DNA of 57,409 nt, filler included, from Dugesia japonica (lineage: Eukaryota), in NCBI GenBank assembly GCA_001938525.1. It is 5 parts of 5 records of this genome, joined end to end, with 100 filler letters (N's around TTAATTAATTAA, not from the genome) between each part and the next. Parts side by side here need not be neighbours in the genome. Positions count along the whole stretch, not along the records: positions 34,998 to 47,220 come from MQRL01617702.1; 4 more parts are not named here. One strand, given 5' to 3'. Of this stretch, positions 9,791-47,320 are shown piece after piece. Under the pieces are notes generated by a model. That model saw only the letters and a program-made list of their open reading frames with translations. It was not told the origin of the DNA and searched no databases. Within the stretch, counting starts at the first letter, position 1, and every line of letters begins with the position of its first letter. The position numbers and the translations under genes were made by a program.

Positions 9791-10029
9791 GGTGTCCTAC
9801 ACTCTAATTTAAAGTGAAGGTGTCCATTAATATTAAATTAATTACTTTTATTATGTTATATTAAGCATAAAAAATCATTTTTTTCATTAAAACTATTTCA
9901 TATATATAAATTAATAGTTTATTATAGTTTATTAATTTAGTTTAGTTAGTAGTTTAGTAGTTTATTAATAGTTTATTTATTATTTATTTATTTGTATATT
10001 TATGCTCATTTAAAATGCAAATTAAGTAC

Positions 10030-10726: not shown

Positions 10727-10826
10727 NNNNNNNNNNNNNNNNNNNNNNNNNNNNNNNNNNNNNNNNNNNNTTAATTAATTAANNNNNNNNNNNNNNNNNN
10801 NNNNNNNNNNNNNNNNNNNNNNNNNN
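10727..10826. other. Artificial contig linker (44N-TTAATTAATTAA-44N)
   Basis: The same six-frame-stop spacer occurs four times in the window. Confidence 0.95.
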
Positions 10827-13160: not shown

Positions 13161-13555
13161 AATCTTTAAGAAGTAAATCTTGTTAGTCTTAATTATTTAA
13201 AAAACATTTTTAATACAATATTTAAAAACTAAATAATAATAATACATTTATTTGTTTTAACAAAAATTCAATGGAAACAACAATAATTGTTGTAATTCTA
13301 TAGTTCATTCTGATGTTTTTCCATAGCGACCATCAGATTAAACTTTGCACACTCAATACAGTCAAATGTGCAAAATTCAGCTGTTATATACTGGTTAACA
13401 ATCACGTCTGAAAGCATTGGTTTTTTTTCTTTGCCAATTTTTCCCCGTTTTCCCAAAATATCTGTCAGCATTCCTAAATTAAATTTATTAAAGAAAAATT
13501 ACAAATAAATAACAGACAAACCAGTTTTCAAAAAATTGTCTGCAAAATCTTTCGT

Positions 13556-13798
13556 AATTTAAACGTGCAATACTTGATTCCATTCAAAAATCTTAGACAT
13601 CAGACTGTTGTTGATTTTCTAGAAAGACAAACATATCCAAATAATAGAAAATTTCTTATTGAATCTTTTCAAGATGCAACAGAAATACCACATGGATATA
13701 TATTTCTTGACTTTACACAACAATGTCCAGATGATTATAGAGTAAGAACAGATATATTGAATCCAAATGGTATCACAGTATATAAACAAAATAGGTAA
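13556..13798 (+). pseudogene. Polinton A32-like packaging ATPase, C-terminal fragment
   Basis: NLNVQYLIPFKNLRHQTVVDFLERQTYP...PHGYIFLDFTQQCPDDYRVRTD, homologous to the copy at 45966-46590. Confidence 0.85.
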
Positions 13799-14279
13799 TT
13801 TTTCCTATTACAAAATGACAAAGTTAAAGAAATTTGTAGTTGATCAAGTAACTGATGATGTGTTAAACTTCGAAAATATCTTTTGAGATGAAAAAGTATG
13901 GAAAAAAGAAGAAACAACATTTAAATAAGAAGCAACAAGTAAATAAAATGAATATGTTTAAAAAACTTTCAAAAAGAAGTGGAAAGAAGCTGAGAATGTT
14001 GTACAGTAAAAATATTATAATAAACAAATAAATTGTATGTATTATTTTAATAAATAAAAATGAAATTAAAAAGAAGCATTCCGTTTTTCACAGATTTAAT
14101 TAAATCACCAAAACCTTTTAGAATAAGAATTTTACAATCATTTCCACCATATATTATAGACGATTTACTTGAAATTATTATAATATTGTTCATAGTAATG
14201 TTGATTTGAGTGCATTCAAAATGAAAACATTGAAAAACATAAAAAACTTTATTAACGCTTGTCAACAATGGTTTACTTT

Positions 14280-14790
14280 AATATTAATAATTAAAATAAT
14301 ACTGCTAGTAGTTACATTGTTGAGCTTCAAAATCCAATTTACATGGTCGATAGTAAGGAAGTTGCCATGATGGATTTCACCTTTGTATATTCAGCCATGC
14401 TGATTTACAGTCAATCTAGGATTGTGTATGAATTATTTAAACTAATTGAGATGGAACTAACAATTGTTGTTAACAATAAAGAAAAAAAAATTTAACAGTT
14501 ACTAGTAAAGACAAATATCACAATAATAGAGAAACAGTTATACAATTAACGAACGAAAATATGTTATACTTTAGTAGTGATATTAAATTCCATAATTTAT
14601 CATTTGATACTTTAGAAAACTTGAAAAGATTTTCGTATGATAGAGCTAAAGTAACACAATCGGACAATATTGTAAATCTTGATACTAGTAAACATTTTGG
14701 TGATAAAATTTTTACTATTTGCTTTTATATCTTTAAAAACGATGATTCCGTTGAACAAATAAATATTAAATATTATTATGCAATGATTTA
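14280..14790 (+). pseudogene. Polinton minor capsid (penton, PX), N-terminal part
   Basis: NNTASSYIVELQNPIYM...EVAMMDFTF matches the penton N-termini at 39826 and 45249. Confidence 0.75.
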
Positions 14791-17700
14791 GAAACGTTTA
14801 TCAAACGGTTTGAAATATACTTTGAGGCAAAGAATATCGTTGTTAAGAAAGATCAGGAACGTTGGATAACATGTATACTTCATGAATATTGAATGGAAGC
14901 ATATGTAAAGACATTGAAGAAAGCGGATGGGTATCAAGAGAGAGATTGCGATTAGCTTTTGAGAGCAAGAGAGACATAACAAAAGATTTACATAATCTTT
15001 TAAGCTTTCAAAGTAGTAATGAAGAACTTGAGGTGTATTTTAAAAATGTGGAAGATTTGTTCGATAAATGGAAAGTTGACGAAAGAAAAACTCTTATAAA
15101 AAATGCTTATAATTTGTGCAAATAGTAAAAAAGCAGAGTAAGAGATTATCATGCGAAAATTTGAGAAAGTAGAGAATATAAAACAAACGTTATCATTAGT
15201 TGGAAAAATAGAAAGAAGAGAACCTATTAATGTAGTAAAATCTTACACTAGTGTAACACTCGGAGAACGTTTCGGAGAAAATAGACAAAATATTGAAAGA
15301 GTTACAAAAAGAACAGAACCACAGTGTTGGACATGCCAGATATATGGGCATACAAAAAGAGAGTGTCCAAAAAATTCTCATGTGGAATGTTAGACTTGTC
15401 ACAAAAAAGGGCATTTAAGTAGAAATTGTCCCGACAAGAAATCACCAAAATGTTTTGGGTGTGGTAAAATTGGTCATGCCAGAAGGATGTGCACAGATAT
15501 TGTAGGTGGTAGATGTAAAAGACCAGGTCACAGAGCAGAAGAATGTTATTCAAACATTAGTAAACGTAGACTAGAAGATACAACTTTAAAAGCAGACAAC
15601 AAACAAAAGATTGGAGTCGAACAAAACCGAATCATTCCATTCGAGAAGCATTTGATGATGAGAATAAAGAGAGATTTTCTGAGAGCATAATAAAAAATGA
15701 AGATTCAAGAAGAGAAAACCCAAAAGGCAGGGCTCGGTCAATAGAGGAGTTAGTCGGAGCCATCCATTAAACGAGATACCGTTTGAATATCCTAAAGAGG
15801 CTGAGAAATGGGGTGAGACGAGTAAAGTGAGAGAAAAGCTTTATAGATTCATAAAAATAGAAAGTTTCAATGATGCGGAAGTTAACAAAGCAGAAGTGAT
15901 AGGAATAATTAAAGAAAAACAGAATGCAAAAATTTAGTATGATAAAATGCAAGGGAGACCTAGCTTTTCAGTGAGGATCAATGGTGAACAGTTTGATTGT
16001 TTCTTGGATACAGGAGCAAGAATAAATGTGATGAGCATGAAAGGATTTAAAAGACTCGGAGAAACAATGTCAGAGAAAAGCGAGAAACGATTACATTGCG
16101 CGAATAACAGCTCATTGGAAACGATTGGAAAGTTGTAGTTTCAGAGGTGTGCGAGGAAGTAACATTTATAATAGTAAAGAAATTAATACCAGATCTAATT
16201 GATGGAGTAAAATTTCAGAATACATTTGGGTATCATCTGCAAAAAAGTGCAGGGTAGACATCAATAATCATGGAGGAAGATTTGTTTGCAACATCGAGGC
16301 AAAATTTGGAAGACAAATACAGACAGGTGAACAATTCAGACATGCAATGAAGATTCTAGAAATTAACAAATATCATGGATTGACAGAGATTATTCAAAAT
16401 AATGAGGATGTATTTATGACGGATAAATGGGGCATTGAATGTACACACTTAACGAAGCATCGAATAATCACTAAATGAGGTTCAAGCAACATAAAACCGT
16501 ATCGCCTACCAATGAATCTAGAGGAAAAGATTGAAGAGACCATCAAGAATCTATATGATAATGTTATTATCCGGAAGTGTAACTTGCAATGGAATACGCC
16601 ATTAATCTGTGTTTAGAAAAAGGAAACAAAGGATATACAATTATGCTTAGACTTTAGACAGCTCAATGCAATAACAGAAAGACAAGCGTTTCCTATGCAA
16701 AATGTGGACGAGGTGCTAGATGCTTTGGAAGGTACGCAATAAAATAGCTCAATAGACTTGGGAAATGCACACTACCAACTGAAACTCAGAGAAGATTCTC
16801 AAGAAAAGACGGCTTTTTCAACCAAACAAGGGCTATGTTGTTTCAATAGAATGCCTTTTGGAATTGCAGCAGCACTAGGTACGTTCCAGGAAATGATGAT
16901 TAAAGTAATAGTAAAAATAAAAAGAGCGATGGTTTATCTAGATGATATTCTCATATTTACCGAAACAAAGGAGCAACACTATGAAATAATCAATAAAGTA
17001 TTAACAGAAATTAAGAAGGCTGGTNNNNNNNNNNNNNNNNNNNNNNNNNNNNNNNNNNNNNAGGAGATCAAATTTTTGGGACACGTTATCAGTAAAGGTG
17101 TCAAAACAGATCAAACTCAAATAGAAGCAATTGATAACTTTGGTAAACCAAACTGAGTTAAGAAAATTAGAAGCTTTTTAAGAATTTGCAATTACTATCG
17201 AAAGTTTATTAAAGATTATTCGAAAAAAGCTAGATTGCTGGAACTATTTAGTGGGCCAAGTAGCAAGAAAATTGAATGGGCAAATGAATTAGAAGAAGTT
17301 TTTAATGGAATAAAAGAAGCTCAAATATTATGTTTTACATCCCAGTTTCAAACCTGGATTAATTATTTGAGCAGTTTAGATATAAAATTAGAATTTAGAA
17401 AAAGATCGATTTATACAATTGTGGATATGTTGTCAAAAAATGAATGCGGTTACATGTGCACAATGTCTAATGTCACATGAAGATCCCAAAAGTGGAAAAT
17501 TAAAAACAAGAATGTTAAATACAGTAGATATTCAAGAAAAACAAGGTAATTTTGGTGAGAATGAGGAGGGAACATGGATACCTGATGATAAAGTAGAAGA
17601 AGTTATAATGAGGATACAGCATCTTTTGTGCCATGTTGAAGCAGAAAAAGTAGCAGCGTATATAAAGCATAATTATAACGCGAAAAATTTGTAGAGCAAA

Positions 17701-17820
17701 GAACAAGAGGTTGTGCAAAGCTGTATAACATGTCAGAAAGTTAAAGTGCTGACAACAAAAACGAAGGAAGAAACAAAAAAGACGCAGCCAGCTAAAATGT
17801 TTGAACTGTTATTTATAGAT
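14781..17820 (+). mobile_element. Degenerate Gypsy LTR-retrotransposon internal region (gag-PR-RT-partial RH-partial IN) nested in the Polinton penton gene
   Basis: Gag has CCHC knuckles (15325-15550). Protease reads FLDTGA. RT reads LCLDFRQLN, KTAFST, MPFG, VYLDDILI, FLGH. The integrase zinc finger H...H...CITCQ is present. No LTRs are visible. Confidence 0.92.
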
Positions 17821-18009
17821 ATAAAATTTAAGGATTTTTAAAATAGAAAATTGAATAAATAAAAGATGTTTATTTTAATTAATTTTTTTAAAAATCAAAT
17901 ATATTTTAAAAGAATAAAATATATCTATTTTATTGTATTTTTTTAATCAAAATATAATTTAAATATAATAAAATATAAAAATATATGAAATTAAATATTT
18001 TCAGTTTTA

Positions 18010-18404
18010 AATGTGGATTTTTAAATTTGTTAGTTTAAACAATTAATGATGTTATAAGTTTTATTTTAATAAAGCGTTGTTATGAATTCAAATTTGATAT
18101 TGATGATAAGATAAGTTTTCCAAACTCAACTAACAGTAGTATTGTTGATCCTATAATTGTTGGGGATGTAAATGTTCCTTTATTGATAGCCGCATGGATA
18201 GAACAACATAAGGGGGATGAAATAGTTNNNNNNNNNNNNNNNNNNNNNNNNNNNNNNNNNNNNNNNNNNNNNNNNNNATTTACCTATTTCTTCATCATTT
18301 ATAAACAATATAGAAATCAATATACGTGATGATAGTGAAAAACTAGATATTATGCTGAATACTTAAAAACTCATTTAACGTTACATTTTAGAAAAATTGT
18401 ATAG
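18010..18404 (+). pseudogene. Polinton penton, C-terminal part
   Basis: SSIVDPIIVGDVNVPLL...LPISSSFINNIEINIRDDS...THLTLHFRKIV*. Confidence 0.85.
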
Positions 18405-18819
18405 TACTAGTTAAGCAAGTGAAGAATAACCTCACTTTCTAGGAAAACAGTATGGATCTAGTTGGTTACGAACAATATGTAGTTTTGCTTTACCTATTCT
18501 TAAACGTATTGGTTCTTTAGGTATGAAAACAGCTCAGGATGTACTTGCTAATGATGGAAAAATACTACCCACATTAAAATCTAATTCATTAGCAGAACTA
18601 GGAAATGTAGTTTCTTCGTTACATCGTGAAGTTACCAGCATGATTTCAAAAGTAGCAGGTATATTTCCTCAAAGTATAACAAATAAAATACCATCTAAAA
18701 TAACTAATATGCTAACAAATCAACCTAAAGCAATACCAACTAATAAAAAACGTAAAGAATCACATGCATCACGTATAAATAAACGAATGAGAGGACACGT
18801 AACAATATTTGAAAAATGA
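18400..18819 (+). pseudogene. Polinton small basic core/PW-type protein
   Basis: PHFLGKQYGSSWLRTICSFALPILKRIG followed by a basic C-terminus. It lies between penton and major capsid, and its stop codon overlaps the MCP ATG (ATGA). Confidence 0.7.
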
Positions 18820-19850
18820 TTTGTGGTAAAACTGAATTATGTATTTTGGACCGACCATCTTCACAAGCTGTAATTTCGAAGATGTCTTTCTTATGAATTT
18901 TCAATTTCAGAATCAAGACGTGATGTAGAGTTTTTTATAAATGGATCTCAAACCGAATATTAGGATTTAAATGATACTTTCGTTTAATAATTTCAAAATT
19001 GAAATAAATCTTATCTTCACAAAGCATTGATTGAAACTATAATAAATTATAATGGTGATATTAAGAATATATGTCTTACAGCAATGAGATATGGATCAAA
19101 AGCAAAAAGAAAAAAGTCTATTAAAACATCAAAACAATTATCTCTATGTGGCTCATTACAACTTGATTTCTTGGATCAGCNGAAATACCTTATTCCAGGT
19201 GTCAATGTTCCTATTCGATTGAAATGAGCATCTTCTAAGATTTGTTTGGAAAATGCAGCCAATGCATTTAAATATGTATTACTAAATGCAAAATTAATAA
19301 ATAGACGTGTACGAGTTGAACCATTGGTACTTGCTGCTCATTAAATGGGACTAATAAAGCAAAATGTTATTTATCTGATAAGAACTAAGGAGGTTGTTGC
19401 ATTTGCAATTAGTAAAGACAGTTCATCTTTTTATAAGAAACAAATATTTGGTGATCGTCGATTACCTAGCTTTATTCTAGTTACATTTCAAAGTGGTGAA
19501 CAATATAACTGTAGTTTTAAAGCTCGAGTTCAACATTTCAAAATCTAGATACTGTTTTCGTTTTGTTGACAAAAAACACTAATTATCGAGAAATATGTAC
19601 TCCAGATTTTACAAACGATAATTATACCACAACATATATAACACGTAGTGATTTTAAGGATAATTATACATTCTTTACATTTGTTCTTGCTCCAGATTTT
19701 GATATAAGTCAGAGTCAATTACCTCATCAAAGAAATTTGAGATTGGATATCAAGTTTGCGAAAGCCTTAACAACATCAGCATATGTTATAATTTATGGAG
19801 TATTTGAAAATGAAATTCAGTTTAATGCCAACGGAACAGTATTGGTGTAT
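18816..19850 (+). pseudogene. Polinton major capsid protein (PY), frameshifted
   Basis: MICGKTELCILDRP...VEFFINGSQTEYLDLNDT, LDFLDQxKYLIPGVNV, RRVRV, YTFFTFVLAPD, NLRLDIKFAKAL. Confidence 0.88.
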
Positions 19851-20224: not shown

Positions 20225-20324
20225 NNNNNNNNNNNNNNNNNNNNNNNNNNNNNNNNNNNNNNNNNNNNTTAATTAATTAANNNNNNNNNNNNNNNNNNNN
20301 NNNNNNNNNNNNNNNNNNNNNNNN
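20225..20324. other. Artificial contig linker
   Basis: 44N-TTAATTAATTAA-44N. Confidence 0.95.
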
Positions 20325-20715: not shown

Positions 20716-21119
20716 TTGCAATAATTAGTTTTTTATAGTGGTAGATACTCCTTATCGACCAACAAATTTCTATTTATTATTTTTAAATACTTCTTCAAAG
20801 TTCATAAAAACCCTTTAGAAAGTTTTAATATTTACTTAAAATTTTTTCTTAAAATAATTTACAGAATTTCATTTATAAATTTAAAAATATCATAATAAAT
20901 CTATTATTTTTGAAAATTAAAGAATTTTTACATTGTATATTGATATAACGGCATGAATGTAAATTATTTAATTTGTTTATATATGTAGTAATTTTTCGAA
21001 CTTGGTTTAAAAGTAATTTTAAATTTAAAATAAAACGCTTTTTTTTAATAAATGTTATTCTATATTTATTTTTAGATTTTTAAATTATTTTCTTATTATT
21101 TTTCATTTTTAGAACTAAA

Positions 21120-21764
21120 ATGATTCAATTAAATGATTTATATCAGTCTGTATCACTTACAGCAAAAATCAAATTAATTAAAGAATACAAGAGATTACGA
21201 AATAAACCGTATTCATCAGATCCAAACGATATTTATAGTTATGTAAAATATGTTTCGAAAAATGTTGAGTCTTTGCCTATAACGAAAAATATGGAAAATA
21301 GTTTATTTGTCATTCCTAAACTTCCAAGACAAATTCGAAGGACTAGAAAACCAAAAATAAATCCTGAAAATGTAACAGAAAGCAATAAACCAACGAAAAG
21401 AAAGTATACGAAACGAAATACAAATGAGGGATGTAAAAAAGGCACAGACTGGCAAACTTTTATTAATGAAGTTGAAACTGCAACAAATGAAAAGCGAATT
21501 AAAACTGAAAGTAATGATAATTCTAAACTGATGGAAACCGATCTTTCTGACCAAGAGAATATTTTGCCAACTTATAATGAAGAAGAAGATAATCAGAAAG
21601 ATAAAATGATCAGAGAAGAGAATAATGAGAAAACACCAGAAATTTCTGAATCAAAAGTTTCACCATTTGCGGATATTTATTTGTCAAATAATTTGGAAAT
21701 TATTAACTTGTCGGATTTCATTACAAAAGAAGAAAGCTTCACTGAAAATTATACCCCCGAATAG
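21120..21764 (+). CDS. Intact 214-aa ORF of unknown function (basic NLS-like middle, acidic C-terminus)
   Basis: 645 bp open in very AT-rich surroundings. A polypyrimidine-AG acceptor lies just before the ATG. Basic clusters are RRTRKPK and KRKYTKR. Confidence 0.55.
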   Translation: MIQLNDLYQSVSLTAKIKLIKEYKRLRNKPYSSDPNDIYSYVKYVSKNVESLPITKNMENSLFVIPKLPRQIRRTRKPKINPENVTESNKPTKRKYTKRNTNEGCKKGTDWQTFINEVETATNEKRIKTESNDNSKLMETDLSDQENILPTYNEEEDNQKDKMIREENNEKTPEISESKVSPFADIYLSNNLEIINLSDFITKEESFTENYTPE

Positions 21765-29192: not shown

Positions 29193-29627
29193 TTTGAATG
29201 CGTAAAATTTTATTATATATTTATATTATTTTAAAATATTTAAAATATTGTAATCAAATTAATAATCGATATATCAATTAAAAAAATATTAGTATTGAAA
29301 AGGTAATGGTTAAAAAGAAATAATATAAAAATAATATTTTAAATTAAAAATAGAAAATTAAAGAAAAAATTTAAATTTTCTATTAATAATTAAAGAAATA
29401 CTTTTTTGTATTGAGGTATAAAACTTTCATTTTGATCGATAATCAGTTAATTACACTTGTTAGAAAATTACACACTATTTAAGAGCTTTGTGAATTNTAG
29501 CTATTTATAAGTCACAATTTGATTGGTTTAAGTTGGTTTTTAATGTTATTGATTTTCAGCGTATACATAAAATCTGAATTTTCAAAATAGTTTACGTTTT
29601 CATTCTTAATAAAGTCTTTTAGTCAAA

Positions 29628-30425
29628 ATGGGAGTAGCTATGGTGAAAGCATTAATCAAGAATTATGACGATATTGAAGAATGGTATCCATTAACAACTG
29701 CAATAAAAGATCTGAAAAAAAACGATGAAAAGAAAATGGTTGATGAAATCTGTAACGACGATTTCATAGAGTGGATGTATTTAAAAATTCAGCAAATTAT
29801 AGAAATGCAAGACGAGACTTTAATTCAAAATGTAAGCACTATGTTTTCATTTCTGATTAGTCTCACTGATAAAAGTGTTTANTTTTGTGAAAAAATTATT
29901 AAAAATGAAAGTTTATTGAATTTTATAAAATTTATCATTCAAAATGAATATCTAAAGGAATTTTGTCACAGAAATGCTATTTTTATTATAAACAATATTG
30001 AATTTCAATTGGAAAAAATGTATTTCAATGATGAGGATGTTAAAAATTTCCTTATCAAGCAATTTTCAGTTCATGAAAAACTTATGTGTTTGGTTACTTT
30101 AATGAGATTATCTTCACTTGATGAAATTAAACAGTTTGAAGATGAAATCTTTACAATCATTCCAGATTTGATTAAAAATTTTGAATCATGTTGTAAAACT
30201 TCTGAAATGGTCGTAGAGGGTATCGGAATAGAGGAACTTTTAAAGAATATAAATGTAATTTGTAAAAGTGAAAAAGTGAAAGACGTATTAAAGGAAAATA
30301 ATGAGTTAATTGTTACTTTGAATAAAATAAGTTCAGACCAAAAATTCACGAATTATAAATGGTTGTCAGATGAAATTTTATCATTGTTAGGAAAAAGTGA
30401 TAATTCAAGTGAATTAGAACAATAA
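29628..30425 (+). CDS. Intact single-exon 265-aa alpha-helical (ARM/HEAT-like) protein
   Basis: 798-bp ORF with amphipathic helical repeats. A TATA-like tatttataag lies at ~29502 and AATAAA at ~30468. Confidence 0.75.
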   Translation: MGVAMVKALIKNYDDIEEWYPLTTAIKDLKKNDEKKMVDEICNDDFIEWMYLKIQQIIEMQDETLIQNVSTMFSFLISLTDKSVXFCEKIIKNESLLNFIKFIIQNEYLKEFCHRNAIFIINNIEFQLEKMYFNDEDVKNFLIKQFSVHEKLMCLVTLMRLSSLDEIKQFEDEIFTIIPDLIKNFESCCKTSEMVVEGIGIEELLKNINVICKSEKVKDVLKENNELIVTLNKISSDQKFTNYKWLSDEILSLLGKSDNSSELEQ

Positions 30426-34897: not shown

Positions 34898-34997
34898 NNN
34901 NNNNNNNNNNNNNNNNNNNNNNNNNNNNNNNNNNNNNNNNNTTAATTAATTAANNNNNNNNNNNNNNNNNNNNNNNNNNNNNNNNNNNNNNNNNNNN
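34898..34997. other. Artificial contig linker
   Basis: 44N-TTAATTAATTAA-44N. Confidence 0.95.
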
Positions 34998-35422: not shown

Positions 35423-37388
35423 CCCTTTATCTACTGCATTATGAACTACTGAAAATTTCTTCATAAATATATTTTTTTGCTGCCATATTAATAATTAAAG
35501 AATACACAAGAAAAATAATCTCCCCGGTGCGAAATTTAATTTGTTAGAACTAATTAATTAAAGTGGTACTTAAAAGTACCGTCAGTACACTATGTATAAA
35601 TTTCCGCATAATAGAAAAAAATAACGGATGATATTACGATGCACCTCTACATATGCAATATATAAATTTACACATGCCATTTCTAGCATAGCAAAAAATG
35701 ACTGTGCCACCATTTTTTCGATTTCCTGTCCCTATCATAAATAGCACGTAATCTGTCGACTTTATCAATTCCCCCATGTGTCCATTGTAATCTTTTACAG
35801 CAATGGCTGTAACGTTAATTTTTGTATCACTTTTGAGTTTCCTTTGGAATTTGCAAGTGTCGTTTCCATGATAATTCGAAAGAAAGTGTACGGATCGATT
35901 TTCCTTCGATTTGAAGAAGTATATTCCTTGATCAGATATTTGATAATCTAAGTCCCCTCGTTTAATTTTTTTATCATCAATAAGTTTGAGTAACCCAAGT
36001 CTATCAGGACGAATGGTGTCGACTGCATATATATTTTTCGTTTTCAAATACTCTAATAGTACCACGGAAGAGAAAATTGTCCATGATGATGATTTAGTTT
36101 TTGCGTACAAGACTATTTATCAACTCATCAACTACTGTCCCGCCTAGTCCAAATCCTTTCTTTGAGCTGTCACTATTGACCTGCTTCCCTTGATAAACGT
36201 CAAATTCATATATAAATGTATATATAAATATATATCCGGACATATCTGTCCGGCACTAAAGTTTGAAACCACGCTTGATGGTTTTTTTTGGGTTGTATTG
36301 TTTTAGAGTAGACCTCCCCTTGAATACCACCATACTTTCATCAATTGACTGGATTTGAGTGCCTATCCTAAAGTTCTAAAAATTCTCATTCAATCTAGAT
36401 ATAAAGGGCCTCAGCCTGTACATTTTATCAGAGTTATTTTCCGGTATTGATAAATTTTCATTTAGAAAAAATATAAACCCATATATCTCTTCTGTAGTTA
36501 TTGGCGTAATGTGTTTGTTATTTTGGTTTATATATAAATTCGTCTGAAAAAATATATTTTCAACAATAAGGTCATCAAAAACTTTTAGAAAGAAATCTGT
36601 TGGAGTAAGCAAAGAATCAAAAATATTATCTACAAATCCAATTTTAGAGAAAAAATGGGAACCTGAGATTAAACATCTCTTTTCTTCCAACGTCTATCAA
36701 TTTTACATTTTCGAGGTAGGGACTACTTTTTTCCAGGACCTGACTCCTGATTTTCCTTATCACTGCACCCAGGGTCTTCTTCCGTTACTTCAGAATCTGA
36801 CGAAAACTTCTTAATATATTGTCTTAAAATTCTTCATCAGATGAATCATCAGTGATATCACTATTTTCTAATGGCAAATCTTTCAACATATCCAAAGCCT
36901 CCTGAATGGTGAGACCTTTCTTTCGGGGCATTCTAAAAAAAGGAAAGAATATTTTACTATTGCTTGAAAACTTTTTATGTGAAGTACGTGTACTGGCAGT
37001 ACTTATAAGTACCACAGAATAATTCGACCGTTAATCACATTACATATTTAGTTATCTTACAAGGATTGGGCAAATAATATTCTAAGACAATACAGAATGA
37101 ATAAAAAAAATACAACACTTACCATTGGTTTGATATTATATATTTATAGCAAAGAAAAGATAAGAGCGCAATCCGAACAAAATGGTATCAAAAGAACATA
37201 ATGTCCGTTCGAAAATAGCTTTCTTCCTGGCGAAATTCATCAGCCTAGAACAATTACTGCCATCTTTCATGAAAAAGTAGAGTTAAAAGACTGTTTCTAA
37301 AACGTACCATCAGAATATAAGTAATTGTTGCTGTGCTATAAAGTTTTAAAGTGACTGCTACTTATAAGTACCGTCAGTAGATAAAGGG
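35423..37388 (-). mobile_element. piggyBac element with both ends and TTAA target duplications; transposase decayed
   Basis: TTAA-CCCTTTATCTACTG ... CAGTAGATAAAGGG-TTAA, with internal subterminal repeats at ~35563-35590 and ~36990-37013. Transposase fragments read MPRKKGLT...DEEF, QTNLY, DKMYRLRP, IDESMV, KQYNPKK, DYNGHMG. Confidence 0.93.
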
Positions 37389-37762: not shown

Positions 37763-38874
37763 ATTCGTTTTGTATATTCTCAGACAAGTAATTTACTTGT
37801 TGGGATTTTAGGGTTTTGATGTTTAAGATTTGCGCTTTAATCTCACTATCATTTATCATTCTCGCAATCAATTAGCACTTCATTTCCACTTCTGTCAAGG
37901 GGTATACCTAAAATACTAATTGTGACCCCTCTCTGTCATGCCGTTTCTTTTTATTGTTTCGGTACCACTCAGTAAGATTACTATGTCATTATTTCAAAAC
38001 TAATTTACACACAGAAATACTTTCTCTTTACTGACCATACATGGTCAATTTATTAACAACTACTAAAAAGATAATAAAAATGATTTCACTAATGGCCATA
38101 CAAAGACGAAATTTAACTACAAAATAGCAACAATAAACATTTTCGGTATAATAACTCTACTATTCTAGCAGCATGTAAAGAAGTCCTAGCACGAATTTTA
38201 ATAATTAACCAATTAGCATTATATTCTCCGTGTGCTTGTCGTAGTTTAACTTCATGTGGTATTAACTTCATTGTATTTATTGATTATTGATATTATTGAT
38301 TTATTGATTTATCATTTAGAAATATAACAACTATTGTCCTAAAGAAAGTCGTTTTTAATATTTTAACTAAATGTTAATATCTCTTGAAGAAAACTCATCA
38401 AACTTTACTCATTATCCAAAGACGCATATATATATTATATTATATTATTATGTTTTATCAAAATCAACATCAATATTACATACAGAATATACTTTAAATA
38501 TTTATATTGGTTAAATATAATACTTAAACTTATATATATAAATATTTTTGATTTATTTAAAGTAAATCTTTAACTTACCATTAATATTAACATTTAATAT
38601 ACAAAATTGACTGTTTAAATAATCACTACTTTCTAACTTCCCTCTCCATTGAAATTAAAACTGGTTCTGACTTTGGTTTATCTGGAAAATTCAGTAAAAC
38701 TTGAACTGGAGTTAAGACTAAATAATCGTATACGACCTTCAATTCTTCCATATTTTCGTCATAAAATACATTTTCATTTAAACTGTTTATAAATCAAACT
38801 TTATATTTGGTTCCTTTACCATCATGGTGTTTAGTTAAACATTGAGCACACTGCGTTTAATAATAATTTGAAAA

Positions 38875-39810
38875 GCGAGACGAAAAAGTGGTTATCCAAC
38901 CAGTTAGCGTACAGTCTGAACAAGATAATGTTGAAAAGATTCCTAACAAGACCGTAAAAAACCTTTGGTATTGATGATTTATGGCAAATGGATTTGATGG
39001 AAATGATGCCTTATTTGAGAATTAATAAAGGATACAAGTATATTTTGACCTGTGTTGATGTATTTAGTAGATTTGCAAAAGTTGTACCGAAAAAATCAAA
39101 ATCTACTAATAAAATGGAAGCTGCAATCAAAACTATCTTTAAAGAGGGGCATCTAGATAATTTGCAAACTGATTTTGGAAAAGAATTCTTTAATTCAAAA
39201 TTCAAGAATATTATTAATCATATCAAAATAAACCATTATTCGGTGTTTTCACAATACAAAGCAGAATGCGTTAAAAGATTTTATCAAACATTGAGAGATG
39301 CATTGAAAAAGTACTTTGTACATACTGGTAAAAAAACCTGGATACATGTATTACCGAAAGTAATTGATTGTTATAATCATACAAGTCACAAGGAATTAAA
39401 TGAAGCAGGACCAGTTAATGTATTATTTATACATTCAATGAAATTATGGCTTTTGAGACAACAACCAAAAGTAATCAAGAAACTAAAATATAAAGTTGGT
39501 GATCATATTAAAATCTCAAAGATATAGCTTCACCATTCATCAAGAATTTCGATAGTAATTGAAGTGATTAAGTGTTTCAAATATTAAAAATCAATACAAA
39601 ACAGAATCGAATCATTTATGCAATTCAAGATCATGAAGAAAATATCATTGTTAGAAAATTCTATGAACAAGAATTACAAGTTATTCCACAACCAACAGTA
39701 TTTAGAATAGAAAAGATTATCAGATCAAAGGGAATTGGAAAGTATATACAATTATATGTAAAGTTTGCAAAGGCCAAGTTGGATATAGGCATCTCAAGTA
39801 ATAAATTATG
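38875..39810 (+). pseudogene. Polinton retroviral-like (RVE) integrase with chromodomain-like tail
   Basis: GIDDLWQMDLMEM, YKYILTCVDVFSRFA, LQTDFGKEF, YNHT, KYKVGDHIKISK, FYEQELQ, FRIEKII. Confidence 0.93.
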
Positions 39811-39825
39811 CAAAGATGAAGAAAA

Positions 39826-40826
39826 TTGAGCAAAACGAATAATTTCTATACACTATTACCGAGTAATAGTTGTCCATGTATTTATCCAGATAATAAAGCA
39901 AGTAGATTTATTGTTGGACCTGAAAATCTTATTTACTTGAATGAACAATGGGAAGTAGCCTTGATGGACTTTACCTTGATAAATTCTGCCTTTCAATTAT
40001 ATAACAAATCATACATCAAGTATATAACAGGTGATGATTATGANAGGAATGTATAAATCATAATCAATAACAAAGAAAAATCATTGATGGTTCATGATGT
40101 TGGTTTTGAGGTGATTGATGAAAGATTATTGTCAATCATATTAAAACATCATGATTATGTTGTCATATTTTACAATTTAAAAGATCCCAAAAGATTTGGA
40201 TTTAATCCTTTAAGGACTAATATAGAATCGAATTCTACCATACTTTAAAAATGATCATTCAATTGATGTTGTGAAAATAAAATTAGTGTTTTCAATAGAA
40301 ACTAATAGATTCATATCTTTACAAAACGAATATTAAATATCTAATTTGGATCAATTTAGTCGTTTCATCATAAAATGTGTAAGTCTGTTTTCAAAACACT
40401 TTCTACAAAAAATGATGAACCATTCCGATTTTCGTTGTTAGAAAATGTTAAAAGTGTTACGTTCGACAATTTCTTGGCAAAATCATTGGGATTAGACAGA
40501 TAAACATATACTCATGATTATAGAAATATAGTCCATACTGAATACATGGTGTTAAATATTCAAAATTAATCACTAATCCTATTCAAATTTTCCTCCATAG
40601 TAATATTGTTGAACCTATAATTGTTGGTGATCTTAATGTTTCTTTATTGAAATCTGTATGGTTGGAGATGAAGATAATAATCAAGAATCCAATGTATTTA
40701 TCAGTTGCCACTTCATGTATAAACAATATAGAAATCAATATACGAAGTGATAGTGGAGAGTTAGTCGACTTTGCTAAAGACTCAAAATCTCATTTAACTT
40801 GACATTTTCGAAAAGTAAATGTCTAA
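39826..40826 (+). pseudogene. Polinton penton (PX)
   Basis: FYTLLPSNSCPCIYPDNKAS...WEVALMDF; SNIVEPIIVGDLNVSLL; INNIEINIRSDSG...HLT.HFRKV. Confidence 0.85.
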
Positions 40827-41100
40827 TCCTGACTTTAAACTTTAAACTTTATAGTACTAGGCAAGCTGGTGGAGAATTGCCATACTTTGTAGGAAAACAG
40901 TTTGGATCTGGATGGTTGCAAACAATTGGTTGATTTGCTTTGCCTATTCTTAGACATATTGTAGTTATTGGAATGAAAACAGCACATGATGTAATAAACA
41001 ATAAAGCAAATATTTTACCTTCTTTCAAAACAAATGCTGTGATTGGATTCTTAGATTTTGTGGTTTCTTCAGAAGTAACGAATAATAATAATAAACCATG
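40819..41100 (+). pseudogene. Polinton PW/core protein remnant
   Basis: YSTRQAGGELPYFVGKQFGSGWLQTIG*FALPILRH, close to 18400-18600. Confidence 0.7.
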
Positions 41101-41568
41101 AAAAGAAAAACCCCCGATAATATCAATAATTATATTTCGATAACAACTATATTTATTTATTCTTTTTCATATTGTATAATCTTTTGTTGTAAATTCCTTT
41201 ACTTCAGTTAATATCTTTGCAAGGTATTCATTAATCATCTGTAGAGGATTCTTAAAATTAGAAAAATGAAAATGAATAATAATAAATAAATACCATTATT
41301 TCTTGTTTTCTGTAATAACAAAAATAAGATGTATTATATAAAATGAAACTATGTCATTACAATACCATTGTATCATTTAAATTTTTTAACATTTCATTTA
41401 TTTTTTTACCTTTGATTACATGTTTCTAACCTTGTATAATAATTTGATTAAAATTCTATATTTCGTAATAATTTAATTAGAATTATTAATTTCATAATAA
41501 TATCTTTATTTTAAATCATAAATATGATTATTTTGATAATATTTTCTTTATAAATATATTTTATTTAG

Positions 41569-42445
41569 CAAATATGCGTTCAATATAAAAATTATTGCGC
41601 AAATTATGCCCACAAATTAGAATGCCAAATAATTATGGAAATACATTATGGTGAGAAATTCTCTGTTACAAAGTACTACATCTGTCCTAATTGTAAAACA
41701 TTAAGTGTAGGTACATATGAAAGTTTTTATAAGGAGCTTGTCGACCACATTAAGCAATTTGGTATGATTAAAAAAACGAGTATTAGTAAGAGACATCCTT
41801 TCCAATACCTAAAACTAAGAGACCTAGACAATAGTCATTATTAATTGATGAACCATTAGTAATTAATGAACCAGTAGTTGATTTTGTAGGAAATGTTGAA
41901 AATAAGGCTATAGTTGAAATTGACAAAGAAGAAGATAAAGTTTTTAAGAATTATTTGGATGATGGAATTATGACGGAATTGATGACGATGACAAAATTTT
42001 CCAAAAATACTTTGAAGAAAGGAAGAGTTTTTAGGATGAGTACAAGTTGGTGGATCATTAGATGAACCCACTATTGAAACGGATTTATATAGGTGTCATC
42101 AGATTCTTAAGCTTAATGTATCGAGTTATAACATTAGTGAAATAAGTTTATCAGATGTGCTCAAACACAAATTAAATAAAGTTATTAAAGAATTGGAACA
42201 TGTAAAGATTCAAATTGGAATCCATTTCGAGTTTATAAGCAATGAGGAGATTAAGCCAGAATTTCAAATTCTGCTGTTCCCTTTAGTGAACAATTCTTTG
42301 AAAAAGAAATAAAAACTTTACATGAAAAAATAGTCATAAGAAAGGAAATGGGGTCTAGTTGGAAACTTAGTCGTATTCGTGAAATAAATTTTAAGGTGAC
42401 AAAAATAAGTAACATAAGTAGATTATCAGAGAGCAGTTTATCAAA
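41569..42445 (+). pseudogene. Polinton protein-primed PolB, N-terminal region only (Cys cluster, QVGG, GSxW motif)
   Basis: YICPNCK; QVGG (adenain-type cleavage site); VKIQIGIHFEF; EMGSSWKLSRIREINFKV...SSFIK, typical of the pre-exonuclease part of Polinton pPolB. Confidence 0.65.
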
Positions 42446-43527
42446 TGTCAGGAGCTAATACAAAGGTGAAAAACGTATATGAGTCATAAAATTCCTTCAA
42501 TGTAATACCATTGTTTCGATCTACATTTAACAGATCCATATTACGAATAATCAATTAAACATATTCCTCAGTAAAGCCAGTATCAAATTCAGTATTATAT
42601 GTTTCTCGATAATCAACATTTCTCGCCAAGCATATCGACTTTACACCGAAATTTTAAAATGTCGAACAAAATGAACCATTATCACAACTTGCTTGTTTTG
42701 ATGATTGGAAAGCAATCAAAACAAATTTCCTTAATCGTTAATCAGAAAAAAGATTCTTTATATTCTCCATGCGAGTTTTTCAGAATTTTAAAATGCACGA
42801 TTTTTATTTTCTGGAAAGTGTAAATGGCATTTTGATGTTCCAATCCGTAACGATGTACAATCATAACCGACTGATCAACACGAACACGTAGCACTACTAA
42901 TTTAGCTTCTATAATGTATGGTTGTGGATTCATCTCAACTGTTTCTGCAGCGTCTTTAGTATATTTGTAAATTACCGAACCAACTTTTCTCTTCAATTTA
43001 ATTGTCACATTGACCCCTGGCAACAAATATTTTGGTTGGTCAAAGAAATCCAAAAGAAGTGCACCACAGAGCGTTAGCTTTGTAGACGCTTTAATCCAAC
43101 ACTTCCTCTTGACATCTTCCTTATGATAACCAATAGCTTCAAGAAAAATGTTTTTTTATCCGATCCAAAATTCAATGCGGCTTCAAATACCGCCTTTTGC
43201 ATATACGTATCATTTGTATCTTCTACCTTTACATTATTTAGTGTTGATGATGCTTCTTTGTATAGAGTGTGTAGCAAGTAATTTGAAATAATCATGTTGG
43301 TAGCATCAGTTGATGCAAAATTTGTTCCATCATGCTTTACCGTTTTCATTTTAATAATGAGCAACGTATCATTCAAATCCGAGTAATCATTATCTGAACC
43401 AATAATATTGAATTCAATTTGTTGTCCAGCATACTCAATTATAGAATCTTTTCGGTAGATTCCTTCAAACAACAACCTGTGGAATATTATGGTCAAAAAG
43501 CGATTATTCAGTTTTTCCGGCATACAT
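42445..43527 (-). pseudogene. Polinton major capsid protein, 3'-truncated
   Basis: MYAGKTE*SLFD; IEFNIIGSDNDYSDLNDT; DFFDQPKYLLPGVNV; LRVRV; YTFFTFVLAPD. Confidence 0.9.
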
Positions 43528-43529
43528 GC

Positions 43530-43877
43530 TTATTTTGCAAAGATGGTCCCATCTAATCGTCGTCTTTTGTTTATATTCGATGTTATTTTATTTTTCCGTT
43601 TACGTATTCAACTGCCATGCTGTTCACATCCGACAACATATTCATTGCTTGGTTAATGACTACTTCTTGCTTAAAAAATCATCAACAGTTTTTAGTGCTG
43701 CTTTCCCACCGACTTTGCAATTGGAAGTTCATATTTCTGCAAAATTGAAATTGCAAATCGTCCAATTCTATGCAGCTAATTTCCGCCACCTTGATGTTGT
43801 TGACTATCGATAATATATGACAAGTCTCAACCCATTTGTGGACGACTATACATTGTAATAATAGCTTGATCAACCAT
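43530..43877 (-). pseudogene. Polinton PW/core protein
   Basis: MVDQAIITMYSRPQMG...QHQGGGN*LHRIGRFAISIL...AKSVGKAALK with a basic tail ending GTIFAK*. Confidence 0.7.
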
Positions 43878-43909: not shown

Positions 43910-45249
43910 TTATACTAGTCGAAAATGTAGAGTTAAACTTGTTTCTTATCCATATGGAAAATCAATCAATCTTTCCGTATCATTACGTATGTTTACTTCA
44001 ATTTTGTTGATTGAAGATGATGATACAAGTAAATACATTGGATTTTAAAGTTTTACATGAACAACATCACTAAATGAATGCTTGTTACTGTCAACCCATA
44101 TACTCCTCAAAAGTGGCACGCATACATCACCAACAAGAAATGGATCGACTATCAATGAGTAAATATATAGTTGTCTGATACCACCATGTAATAATGGTTT
44201 ATGCNNNNNNNNNNNNNNNNNNNNNNNNNNNNNNNNNNNNNNNNNNNNNNNNNNNNNNNNNNNNNNNNNNNNNNNNNNNNNNNNNNNNNNNNNNNNNNNN
44301 NNNNNNNNNNNNNNNNNNNNNNNNNNNNNNNNNNNNNNNNNNNNNNNNNNNNNNNNNNNNNNNNNNNNNNNNNNNNNNNNNNNNNNNNNNNNNNNNNNNN
44401 NNNNNNNNNNNNNNNNNNNNNNNNNNNNNNNNNNNNNNTGATTTCAGTAAATTTTAATTTAACATCAGTTTTGGCAATATTATTCAGCATTTTATTATCT
44501 GATTCGATAAATGAATCCATCGGTTTGTTTTTCGTCTTTTGTGAATTAAACCCCAGTAACCGAGCATCAAACAATTAATTAAACTACAATTCCATATCGC
44601 AATCAGATTTAATAATTATTTTCTTTTCAGCAATAATACTGATTTTGCAATTAGTTTTATTTTTCAATCCAGAAACAACAGGTTTTCCATTTTTTATCTC
44701 AACATTTACATTTTCTTCAATTTCCTTTCCTCTAGCCTTTCCTTCCTCAATAGTATAAAACTTTAATTTTAAAGATATTGATGAAATATTTTCCAGAATC
44801 AACTGTTCATCAGATTCAATAACTGAAACTAATGGCTTATTATTTTTGGTATTGATTAAATTGAAACCAAAATTCTTTGCCTCTGATAACGATTTAAACT
44901 CTATTTCTACTTGACAATCTGTTTTTATTATTACTTTCTTTTCATCGGAAAATATATACTGATTATATTTATTCATAGGAACGGTATTATGAAGTTGAAG
45001 ACTACCATTTACAATACTTAATTGAAATTTATATTCAATTTCAATCACTTCCCTTATTTTATATTCAATTTTTGAACCTTTCCGTATAGTCTGTGGACAT
45101 TAATTGAAAACAAATTCTGTCGTGGCAACTTCCCAATGGTCATCTTTTAAATTGATGGCATTCTCATAGTCAACCAAATACTTGCTCGCATTATTATCAG
45201 GTCGAGTTCTTGGACAACTATTGCTTGGCAAAACCATATAGAAACTCAT
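43910..45249 (-). pseudogene. Polinton penton with an enlarged, internally duplicated insert
   Basis: MSFYMVLPSNSCPRTRPDNNAS...WEVATTEF; IVDPFLVGDVCVPLLRSIW; INKIEVNIRNDT...TLHFRLV*. Confidence 0.88.
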
Positions 45250-45269
45250 TATTGGATTTGAGATGTTTG

Positions 45270-45845
45270 AATTCACGTAGGCTTTGAATAGCCATGCGCT
45301 CAACTAGATATTGTTTATGTTGGCCTTGACCTTTGGTTTTAAGAATTGATTTGATTCGATGTATACTTGGTTTTTCCGGCGACACTTGCAATTCCTCCTC
45401 ATAAAATTTGCCTTGAATAATATTACCATCTTCATCACGTATTACATACCTGACTGGGGTTTGTCTCGTATTTATTTCTGAGATTTTAAAGACTTCATCA
45501 CTCCAATTATTATCAAAGTTTTAAATGAATGGCGTAGTAATAATTCGAGAAATCCGTACATGTTGTCCAATTTTATATTTTGGTTTTGGTTTTTTATTGA
45601 TGAAATAAAGTGTATCATCATCATAATCTGTAACATCTTCAGGTTTTTGTCCTCCAATACCTCTGTGCTCAGAATGGTTGTATGCATAAATCATTTTTGG
45701 TAAAATATGTATCCATTTTTGTTACCTTGTTTGGTAAAAAACTGGTTTAAACGTGTGCGTAGTGTTCGATTAAATCGCTCAACTAGAGCAGCCTTGAAAT
45801 GAGAAAATAATGAATAATGTAGTATACCATATTGTTTCAAATTGC
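45270..45845 (-). pseudogene. Polinton integrase, C-terminal half
   Basis: HYSLFSHFKAALVERFNRTL; GNKKWIHILP; PFIKNFDNNWSDEVF; IQGKFYEEELQ. Confidence 0.88.
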
Positions 45846-45849
45846 CTTA

Positions 45850-45935
45850 AAGTATGGAATACTTAGTGAAAATCGGCTCAAATTACCACCACCACCACCC
45901 TTTTGTTTTATGACAACTTTTTTAAATCGATTCAT
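45850..45935 (-). pseudogene. Remnant of a Polinton QxGG-motif (PZ-type) protein
   Basis: MNRFKKVVIKQKGGGGNL between ATPase and integrase; an internal deletion follows. Confidence 0.4.
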
Positions 45936-45965
45936 TTCTTTTTTTTTATTAAGTACTAATTTTGT

Positions 45966-46590
45966 TTATACCAATGGTTTGTAAACTTTTATTTCTTCCG
46001 AATTGAATTTATCGGTTTTTACTCGTTCATCATCAGGACATTGTTGGGTAAAATCAATAAATATCCATGGGGTTTGTAGTAACATCTCGAAATGCATCTG
46101 ATAAAAATCCTTTATGTTGAGGAAATGCTTGACGAGAAATATAATCAACCACAGTTTGATCTCGTGAAATTTTGATTAAAACCGAATAATGTACATTTAG
46201 ATTACGTGTACGATGTATGCCACCATGATGGAAAAGATTTTGGGTGATGAAGATGACAGTTACATTACCATGACGAGCGGTTTTTGTAAAGAGATTATTA
46301 AAATCAGCCAGCTTAATTGCCTCTTGAAACAAGTCATCGATTACAATAACATCATCACTATTTAATCGCTTTAACCAATCATCATCAAATCCATCAATTA
46401 TCGTAAACTTTCTCAACTTGCAAAATTTACCATTAGTCAAGCCGGCTTCACCTCCACAACATTGATGCCAGTAAATATGTTTGAACTTTGTCCGAAACAA
46501 TTTGCTTTGTAGTAATTTGCAAACAAATAATGTTTGGCCGCTTCCACTGGGACCGAATATTTGAAAAACAGCGTTGTTTTGTAGCAACAT
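45966..46590 (-). pseudogene. Polinton A32/FtsK-like packaging ATPase
   Basis: Walker A GPSGSGQT (K>Q), Walker B VIVIDDL, RHGNVTVIFITQNLF, DFTQQCPDD; one frameshift. Confidence 0.93.
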
Positions 46591-46630
46591 TTTAACGAAA
46601 CCATAGAAAGAATTTTGTTTATACAAAAGG

Positions 46631-46666
46631 AGTATATAAGCTCATGATTATTGCTCATTCGTCATT
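46631..46666 (+). promoter_or_regulatory. TATA + Inr core promoter of the TBP-like gene
   Basis: AGTATATAAGC with TATA at 46633 and TCATT with its A at 46664 (31 nt), the same as at 12644-12680. Confidence 0.6.
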
Positions 46667-46671
46667 AAACA

Positions 46672-47088
46672 ATATTATCAAATATTAATTACGGGGCTCA
46701 TGTTATTGATTATGAATCTCATAGTCTCCAATTTAATACCTGGAAGAAACCCAGACAGTGTGTAACGAAAATTAAAGATTATTCACTAATCATTTTTGAA
46801 TCGGGAAAATGTCGAATCATCGGATGCAAAAAACCAATCATGGATAAATCACTTGCAAAAATCTCAATATCCAAATAGATGGTATTCAATCAATTACTGT
46901 AACATGCGATCTTGGACAATAAGTGAATTTATATAAACTGAGCAATTTATTAGATTGTTGGTTTGAACCGGAATTATTTCCAGCATTAAGAATCAACAAA
47001 TACAAGCCATTGTGTCAATGTTTTTGCAAGTGGGAAAGTGGTGATTCTCGGATTAAAGACATTGAATTACAAAATCGATCTTTTGTAA
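46672..47088 (+). pseudogene. TATA-binding-protein (TBP)-like gene carried by the Polinton; three frameshifts and one stop
   Basis: Reconstructed sequence: (M)LSNINYGAHVIDYESHSLQFNTWKKPRQCVTKIKD/SLIIFESGKCRIIGCKKPIMDKSLAK/NLNIQIDGIQSITVTCDLGQ*VNLYKLSNLLDCWFEPELFPALRINKYKPLC/VNVFASGKVVILGLKTLN. Both TBP repeat signatures (LIFxSGK..G.K and YEPELFPGL...FxSGKVV.G.K) are present. Confidence 0.85.
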
Positions 47089-47220
47089 TCAATACACATA
47101 CGTCAAATTTAGATGGTGTGTATTGGATTGCTATTCATGTCGAATCAAATATTATTCGTATATTTGATCCAATGGGTATGTTTTATCCGCCATTGTTAGT
47201 ATCAAAATTGGAGCATATGC
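47066..47220 (+). pseudogene. Adenain-like cysteine protease, partial (runs off the contig end)
   Basis: FVINTHTSNLDGVYWIAI...IRIFDPMG (INT...GxHW...FDxxG pattern; catalytic His replaced by Tyr). Confidence 0.8.
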
Positions 47221-47320
47221 NNNNNNNNNNNNNNNNNNNNNNNNNNNNNNNNNNNNNNNNNNNNTTAATTAATTAANNNNNNNNNNNNNNNNNNNNNNNN
47301 NNNNNNNNNNNNNNNNNNNN
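47221..47320. other. Artificial contig linker
   Basis: 44N-TTAATTAATTAA-44N. Confidence 0.95.

Follow-up and report, generated by a model that had tools for sequence, protein, structure and literature searches.

The question considered here is whether animal Polintons behave as viruses, and how they would time the expression of their capsid genes without a polymerase of their own. The stretch of Dugesia japonica DNA analysed here (57,409 nucleotides, assembly GCA_001938525.1; the window) raises it through a decayed gene for a TATA-binding protein (TBP) that lies among Polinton genes. The initial annotation proposed that a Polinton encodes an asymmetric, reduced TBP with altered DNA specificity that could act at virion promoters. 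The copy in the window is dead and serves only as a pointer to an intact family, whose members we call mini-TBPs. The element and its surroundings contain the following genes:

38853..41062, plus strand: second decayed Polinton block with integrase, penton-like and pV-like genes (Pfam and relatives)
42264..42416, plus strand: short stretch resembling the N-terminus of a polymerase-sized ORF in a relative; the remainder of the ORF is missing (39% over 51 aa, E 5.6e-05)
42447..43527, minus strand: putative major capsid protein (MCP) gene, frameshifted, labelled from size and position without a Pfam match, with TATAAACA 48 nt upstream
43734..43874, minus strand: small basic core-protein-like gene (working label pV), with TATAAACA 40 nt upstream
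43913..45249, minus strand: penton-like gene containing an N gap, a working label from position without a Pfam match
45221..45846, minus strand: C-terminal half of a retroviral-type integrase, spread over several frames and lacking its N-terminal half (likeness to relatives)
45969..46590, minus strand: A32-type packaging ATPase, broken near 46069 (Pox_A32, E 3.7e-07)
46672..47070, plus strand: decayed mini-TBP gene (three-frame translation, Pfam, family profile and contig comparison)
47079..47219, plus strand: internal fragment of an adenain (C5) protease that has lost its 5' part and runs up to an N gap (Peptidase_C5 and a relative)

The window contains the Polinton hallmarks retroviral-type integrase, A32/FtsK packaging ATPase and adenain protease. 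An integrase domain (rve) is found at 38958-39524 (E 2.4e-11) in the second decayed block, which spans 38853-42416 when the polymerase-like match is included. The protease fragment falls below the Peptidase_C5 threshold (E 0.046) and is 48% identical to an intact relative that passes it. The capsid candidates are conserved genes of 400 and 340 aa at the expected places, without a Pfam match, and their labels are putative. A Pfam scan of the penton, pX, pV, MCP and DEDD-like genes matched none of them, and these are working names based on position. The polymerase-sized ORFs of relatives (1070-1090 aa) lack PF03175, which fits the divergent Beta class of Starrett et al. The element containing the TBP copy is rearranged and runs into an N gap at 47221. 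Gaps at 10727-10826, 20225-20324, 34898-34997 and 47221-47320 have an identical form (44 N, 12 bases, 44 N) that looks like a scaffolding linker, so the right end of the element is an assembly break.

Elsewhere in the window is a third decayed Polinton block (13553-19847) with an ATPase end and pX, penton-like, pV-like and putative MCP genes; it is broken at about 15400-17700 by what reads as the remnant of a Ty3/gypsy-like retrotransposon, with zinc-knuckle and RT-like ORFs. Fragments at 35600-37030 on the minus strand read like piggyBac transposase. Intact-looking ORFs of 270 and 226 aa occur at 29613-30425 and 21084-21764 (both plus strand), and a tandem array of 15-bp units surrounds an N gap at 9158-9812.

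In a three-frame translation of 46600-47220, repeat 1 of the TBP occupies a single frame (46669-46875); repeat 2 begins in another frame, passes a stop at 46920-46922 and shifts frame again at 47010-47015. The peptides quoted in the initial annotation are present where it had placed them. It had counted three frameshifts; the gene is indeed broken, but what it carries is a pair of frameshifts (one near 46845, the other at 47010-47015), the in-frame stop at 46920-46922 and a broken start at 46672-46674. Family members start at the position equivalent to 46672, where the window copy has no start codon. The out-of-frame ATG at 46644 follows the start of the TATA box (46633-46640) by just 11 nt, which we infer to be too early for the expected transcript. 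Two separate pieces of the window match Pfam TBP with sub-threshold scores (E 0.037 and 0.0086). When the six frames of the window are searched with a profile built from the intact family, only the TBP locus is found (E 5.8e-27 and 4.2e-21), with E 0.33 for the next best of the 10 domains listed. Read through with X at the breaks, the copy has 134 aligned positions and is 77% and 70% identical to two intact relatives. A sequencing artefact was considered as the source of the TBP likeness and rejected.

Four DNA runs yielded 3111, 2225, 2182 and 936 Logan contigs on 45900-47220, mostly at 85-99% identity; therefore the element is a high-copy family in Dugesia japonica. At each of its lesions (start, stop and the two frameshifts) the window copy differs from other copies. 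RNA reads matching at 85% (9, 358, 280 and 399; total 1046) occur in both orientations and derive from other copies, with none 99% alike to the window copy, and lend that copy no support; no RNA dataset was listed as sharing half of the query words.

Two claims about gene arrangement hold in part. The head-to-head order of TBP and ATPase (ATG 46590) is present here and, since contigs of other copies bridge the gap between the two genes, is shared within Dugesia japonica. Among related loci gene order varies: the ATPase is on the same strand as TBP in 14 of the 16 loci that have both genes, and we reject the head-to-head order, found in the other 2, as a conserved feature. The TBP does adjoin the adenain protease in the window, but the junction was made by a deletion that removed the 5' part of the protease. 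The last TBP helix is cut off near 47069, beyond which 16, 9 and 9 contigs (three runs) continue into unlike sequence, and the protease match begins only at about residue 35 (47079). Because of this divergence and late protease start we regard the abutment as a deletion junction and reject a functional meaning for it.

A 69-aa piece of the window copy matched one intact relative, P0001 (155 aa, 67%), which contains Pfam PF00352 (E 2.6e-13). Searching with P0001 gave at least 205 of 214 candidates at E<=0.001 (protein clusters). The 120 relatives listed are 109-192 aa long, mostly 144-165, and all have Pfam TBP; a profile of these 120 finds 58 representatives at a cutoff of E<=1e-30; relaxing it to E<=0.001 gives 3567, cellular TBPs included, and the profile also reaches further proteins of 150-190 aa in which the same residues are altered. 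Among proteins of 337-2000 aa (8000 candidates scored, best 120 of 379 considered) there is one family-like match, P0287 (357 aa), and the named matches are cellular TBPs. Scans of IMG/VR with TBP and ATPase sequences and alignments, a putative MCP alignment and a DNA pattern gave no match, nor did the phage collection. An AlphaFold2 model of P0001 (120-row alignment; pLDDT 94, pTM 0.85) is a TBP saddle without a helix between the repeat-1 strand 52-58 and repeat 2. Foldseek returned 44 PDB matches to this model at E<=0.001, and all those listed are TBP chains (TM 0.60-0.73).

The family lies in Polintons. At least one Polinton core gene is present in 26 of 56 TBP-anchored metagenomic loci and in 15 of the 20 that reach 3 kb, and at least one of ten recurring neighbour genes in 43 of the 56; some loci have TBP beside protease and DEDD-like genes. 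Of the 4 loci from an ATPase-anchored scan that was blind to TBP, the two near-complete ones both have a TBP gene. These context counts, like the motif counts below, come from the 56 TBP-anchored and 4 ATPase-anchored loci, with no sizeable control of TBP-less Polintons. The family is also under purifying selection: the median dN/dS is 0.23 (range 0.06-1.03) over the 52 unsaturated of 1128 pairs from 48 intact ORFs, the pairs not being independent; the ATPase, with 5 of its 91 pairs unsaturated, has 0.04.

Host-like accessory genes are found near TBP in some loci: a ubiquitin-conjugating enzyme, a dual-specificity phosphatase, an LRR protein and a RING finger protein (positions L004:225-719, L015:4008-4316, L024:1918-3327 and L040:1710-2168). 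Another ORF (L019:1690-2135 and relatives) is present in 18 of 56 TBP loci and appears to lie behind a short GT..AG intron; it had no Pfam match and no reliable ESM Atlas match (leads below 0.9).

Residues were counted in 114 of the 120 rows (135-200 aa), with yeast-equivalent numbering anchored on a plant-type TBP. Three of the four intercalating phenylalanines remain (F116 100%, F190 99%, F207 100%), and F99 is replaced by Pro in 98%. P191, N69 and the S-G-K turns are kept, and so, by sequence, is the acidic C-terminal stirrup that binds TFIIB (E186 96%, E188 100%, L or I at 189 in 99%). On the DNA face, repeat 1 carries V71N (97%), V122R (99%) and T124M (100%), and repeat 2 carries N159S (97%), V161T (87%), I194R (98%), V203C (100%) and L205N (100%); T215 is mostly Leu and V213 mostly kept. 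In the wider clade R122, M124 and N205 are found in 55, 56 and 57 of 57 rows. Repeat 1 has lost most of helix 1, its stirrup Phe and all of helix 2, which in cellular TBP is the surface for TFIIA, TAF1, Mot1 and Brf1. The residues between positions 125 and 158 number 18-24 in 30 mini rows versus 33-36 in canonical rows. I194, V203 and L205 are the sites altered in the specificity mutant TBPm3 (PMC1636458), and the family, which changes the same three residues as this laboratory mutant and more, is a natural experiment on TBP specificity.

In a tree of 69 hand-picked rows (176 columns, midpoint root), which leaves out animal TBP and TRF and cannot name a donor, 57 altered-surface proteins are separated from 12 canonical-type ones with support 100/99. 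Three rows that had been labelled 'full_other' beforehand grouped within the altered clade and share its residues. An intermediate class of 150-190 aa (P0175, P0209, P0211, P0216 and part of P0220-P0256) has R122, M124, N205 and P99 together with more of repeat 1, which suggests that remodelling of the DNA face came first and shortening of the protein later. The proposal of a Polinton-encoded, asymmetric, reduced TBP is borne out by the residue changes, the Polinton loci, the selection and the tree: the protein has a TBP fold, and its homologues, distant from host TBP, are found repeatedly in Polintons, with sequences under purifying selection.

The region between the TBP and ATPase genes contains two kinds of promoter-like sequence, placed back to back, and a further variant box lies at the other end of the ATPase:

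45963-45970, minus strand: further TATAAACA at the 3' end of the ATPase (motif scan)
46616..46623, minus strand: variant box TATAAACA, 33 nt upstream of the ATG of the ATPase
46633..46640, plus strand: canonical TATA box TATATAAG, 39 nt upstream of where TBP starts
46662..46666, plus strand: TCATT, about 30 nt behind the TATA box, which we take to be initiator-like

The same two classes are found across the family. We compared 80 nt before 11 gene classes in the 56 loci, with near-duplicates removed, counting from -80 to -11. ATAAAC precedes the ATPase in 12/12 cases, pX in 8/8, the putative MCP in 6/7, the protease in 4/5 and the DEDD-like gene in 10/12. Together this is 40 of 44 upstream regions for five classes that were picked after seeing the data, versus 3 of 39 for TBP (Fisher p 1.6e-15). 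The background is 4.8% of 4794 tiles, and the opposite strand has the motif in 0/44. [TC]ATAAAC is mostly 32-41 nt from the ATG. In a held-out class, the small MG..CC ORF that precedes the integrase and is present in 7 of the 8 loci scanned, [TC]ATAAACA occurs at 32-37 nt in 7/7. Frequencies of ATAAAC in other classes are low: integrase 1/6, penton-like 2/6, pV-like 1/6, polymerase 0/1 and ORF 'o1788' 3/14; the window's own penton-like and pV-like genes do have the motif. Many instances of [TC]ATAAAC overlap the 3' end of the coding sequence before them, so selection on the encoded protein may contribute to keeping them conserved.

The canonical TATAWAWR precedes TBP in 20 of 39 cases (4.2 expected by shuffling) and genes of the five classes in 8 of 44. 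TCA[TC][TA] is near the ATG of TBP in 32/39 versus 8/44 for the five motif-bearing classes. The TBP gene thus has canonical TATA and TCAT-like sequences, and the ATPase, pX, putative MCP, protease, DEDD-like and MG..CC genes have [TC]ATAAAC. GTTTTA is present in 12 of the 19 TBP upstream regions that lack a canonical TATA (e.g. L029, L034, L036, L037 and L042) and in 0 of the 20 that have one, and it is a possible second early or autoregulatory element. The small Met-Gly ORF with a Cys-Cys or similar motif (L004:4536, L040:3410, L006:5299, L023:3021, L019:4691, L057:6131 and L043) possibly encodes a myristoylated virion or membrane protein.

Near-complete loci allow a comparison of Polinton clades. 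L057 (12.7 kb) belongs to the mini-TBP clade and has a mini-TBP; it has the motif before pX, the putative MCP, the protease (78 nt) and the penton-like gene (77 nt), but lacks it before the ATPase, pV-like and DEDD-like genes, the last of which has a canonical box. L058 (also 12.7 kb) has an ATPase that is 41% identical and a polymerase of the PF03175 type (Alpha). Its TBP (11568-12122, minus strand) is full-length (185 aa) with four Phe and both helices, and groups apart from the mini-TBP clade. ATAAAC precedes none of the 9 L058 genes examined; a single chance-like match was seen separately, before the integrase. TATAAAAG precedes the polymerase, pX and one more gene. At the 3' end of the ATPase, [TC]ATAAAC is present in 12/12 mini-TBP-clade loci and both window copies (14 loci given). 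There L058 and the partial L059 have TATAAAAG, and L060, whose ATPase is 70% identical to that of the mini-TBP clade, has TATAAAAA. L059 also has a PF03175 polymerase (Alpha), and no TBP was seen in its 7.9 kb. L058 and L059 versus the mini-TBP clade form a single, suggestive contrast of two polymerase clades with exceptions, for which lineage drift accounts equally well. TBP may have been acquired by Polintons on more than one occasion; alternatively, the full-length TBP of L058 may represent the ancestral state. L057-L060 are Polinton contigs filed inside bacterial MAGs and are probably misbinned eukaryotic viral DNA.

The reading that we favour, with a probability of roughly 0.6, is that mini-TBP is an element-encoded specificity factor for late promoters, a putative [TC]ATAAAC binder that would recruit host TFIIB and RNA polymerase II. 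[TC]ATAAAC would be the candidate target site for the altered specificity at virion promoters that the initial annotation had guessed. Host TBP would transcribe the mini-TBP gene early, from its canonical promoter, and mini-TBP would then read TATAAAC, a site that host TBP may use poorly. The half of the protein that would contact the 3' half of the box is the one in which the stirrup Phe is missing and Arg122 and Met124 are new; in cellular TBP the N-proximal repeat reads the 3' half (PMC1636458). The retained acidic stirrup would dock TFIIB, and loss of the basic helix of repeat 1 would free mini-TBP from host TBP regulators. The outcome would be a one-gene early-to-late switch.

Host TBP fits G-C in some TATA variants only via C-G Hoogsteen pairs that avoid a leucine clash (Patikoglou et al. 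1999, as cited by PMC4402545). Judging from the PDB title of 1qn3 ('C(-25)'), this presumably concerns position 7. In plant protoplasts TATAAACG gave 27% of the activity of TATAAATA (PMC10005294). The Hoogsteen requirement and the reduced activity together make TATAAAC a weak host site, although with 27% residual activity host TBP may manage alone.

That residual activity on TATAAACG leaves room for a different use of the protein, in which mini-TBP is a decoy that binds TFIIB or another TBP partner via its acidic stirrup and dampens host transcription, with TATAAAC read by host TBP or another factor. The stirrup is the most canonical surface left, and most minor-groove residues of cellular TBP are replaced. 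The replacements at positions 122, 124 and 205 are fixed rather than drifting, however, and three intercalating Phe are retained; both fit a new ligand better than a lost one, and we consider a decoy unlikely. To a similar degree we doubt another role on DNA, such as repression or autoregulation at early promoters, or bending at the termini or in packaging, with the promoter classes independent of the protein. The upstream region of TBP is unlike those of the virion genes and includes GTTTTA as a second motif in 12/39, and mini-TBP lacks the separate polymerase-binding domain of herpesviral TBP mimics (PMC7498053); on the other side, an invariant TFIIB stirrup would then be needless, and a motif at a fixed distance from start codons points to initiation.

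A general booster of unchanged or relaxed specificity, which supplements host TBP on all element promoters while TATAAAC is a habit of the lineage, would explain the L058 clade, where a near-canonical TBP goes with canonical boxes and TBP need not mean a private code, as well as the exceptions L057 and L060. It is hard to reconcile with the sharp split of the motif inside the same elements (40/44 vs 3/39) and with a DNA face changed wholesale and fixed, and we judge it quite improbable. Least probable by far is that a processed pseudogene derived from host TBP or TRF came to lie in one Polinton by chance. The window copy is broken and intronless, as such a pseudogene would be, but it is about 31% identical to plant-type TBP versus 57-77% to element-type proteins; there are hundreds of intact relatives in recurrent Polinton context under purifying selection and thousands of variant contigs in Dugesia japonica, and the family forms a 100/99 branch apart from cellular TBPs. 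On identity, relatives, context, selection and tree we reject it.

Read at its strongest, with mini-TBP as a late-promoter switch of its own, TBP and promoter would be a co-evolving pair in Polintons, with an unrelated near-canonical TBP and canonical boxes in the second clade. The family would then be direct evidence of a staged, virus-like expression programme and would supply a natural orthogonal TBP-promoter pair. A TBP variant and its matching box bring the question of capsid timing within reach of a test that needs a single small protein and a site of 8 bp. We regard this strongest reading as about an even bet: a lone TBP of 150 aa with the orthogonal code TATAAAC, still able to dock TFIIB and rid of the host-regulation helix, would give Polintons the smallest early-to-late transcription switch known from viruses.

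Mini-TBP resembles cellular TBP and TRFs (PF00352; 1ytb, 1cdw, 1qn3, 2z8u) in its two-repeat saddle, Phe116, Phe190 and Phe207, the E-P-E stirrup and the S-G-K turns. It is shorter (about 150 versus about 180 aa), with no long N-terminal tail, a shortened first helix, and neither the stirrup Phe nor the second helix of repeat 1, and nine DNA-face positions are changed, most of them fixed at 97-100%. Three canonical TBP features are incomplete or absent: the four Phe, repeat-1 helix 2 and the minor-groove residue set (N69/N159, V71/V161, V122/V213, T124/T215, L114/L205), in which N69 and mostly V213 are kept while V71, V122, T124, N159, V161, L205 and mostly T215 are replaced. TBP-like factors of giant viruses (BFVD) are also viral TBP folds (best E 5e-9, TM 0.66); they are mostly longer (186-550 aa among the best 22) and 9-21% identical to mini-TBP. 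Giant viruses with such factors carry their own RNA polymerase, and none was seen in the Polinton loci examined.

In the literature that we searched on Polintons and adintoviruses with TBP, TATA or promoters, the sole TBP label on Polinton-type elements is that of Starrett et al. 2021 (PMC8502044; bioRxiv 10.1101/697771). The MELD viruses with adintovirus-like PolB described there are alike in having a TBP-like gene in a mid-size Polinton-type virus; in the available text 'TBP' is an abbreviation in a figure legend, which gives neither the virus nor the type of TBP, and the word 'promoter' is absent from the journal main text. PMC12220804 was discarded as a source, 'TATA' being an author name in its available text. 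Neither a reduced TBP family nor a promoter pairing was found in this search; Repbase, figures, subscription journals and bioRxiv supplements lay outside it and may hold a description. A TBP label on Polinton-type viruses is thus already known, and the reduced, re-surfaced family and its promoter pairing appear, within the literature covered, to be new.

The proposed functional parallel is the vTBP of beta- and gammaherpesviruses (ORF24, BcRF1, UL87), which acts at TATT late promoters (PMC7498053). There a viral TBP and a variant TATA box at structural genes are combined with host polymerase II, and the logic that we propose for Polintons would be the same. The structural match of mini-TBP to BcRF1 is weak (E 0.03, TM 0.31). 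ORF24 binds the polymerase CTD by its own N-terminal domain, within a six-protein complex (PMC7498053). Mini-TBPs, mostly 144-165 aa long, have no such domain and are a bare core that keeps the TFIIB stirrup. By analogy, mini-TBP would work like the herpesviral vTBP/TATT system, yet it is not a member of it.
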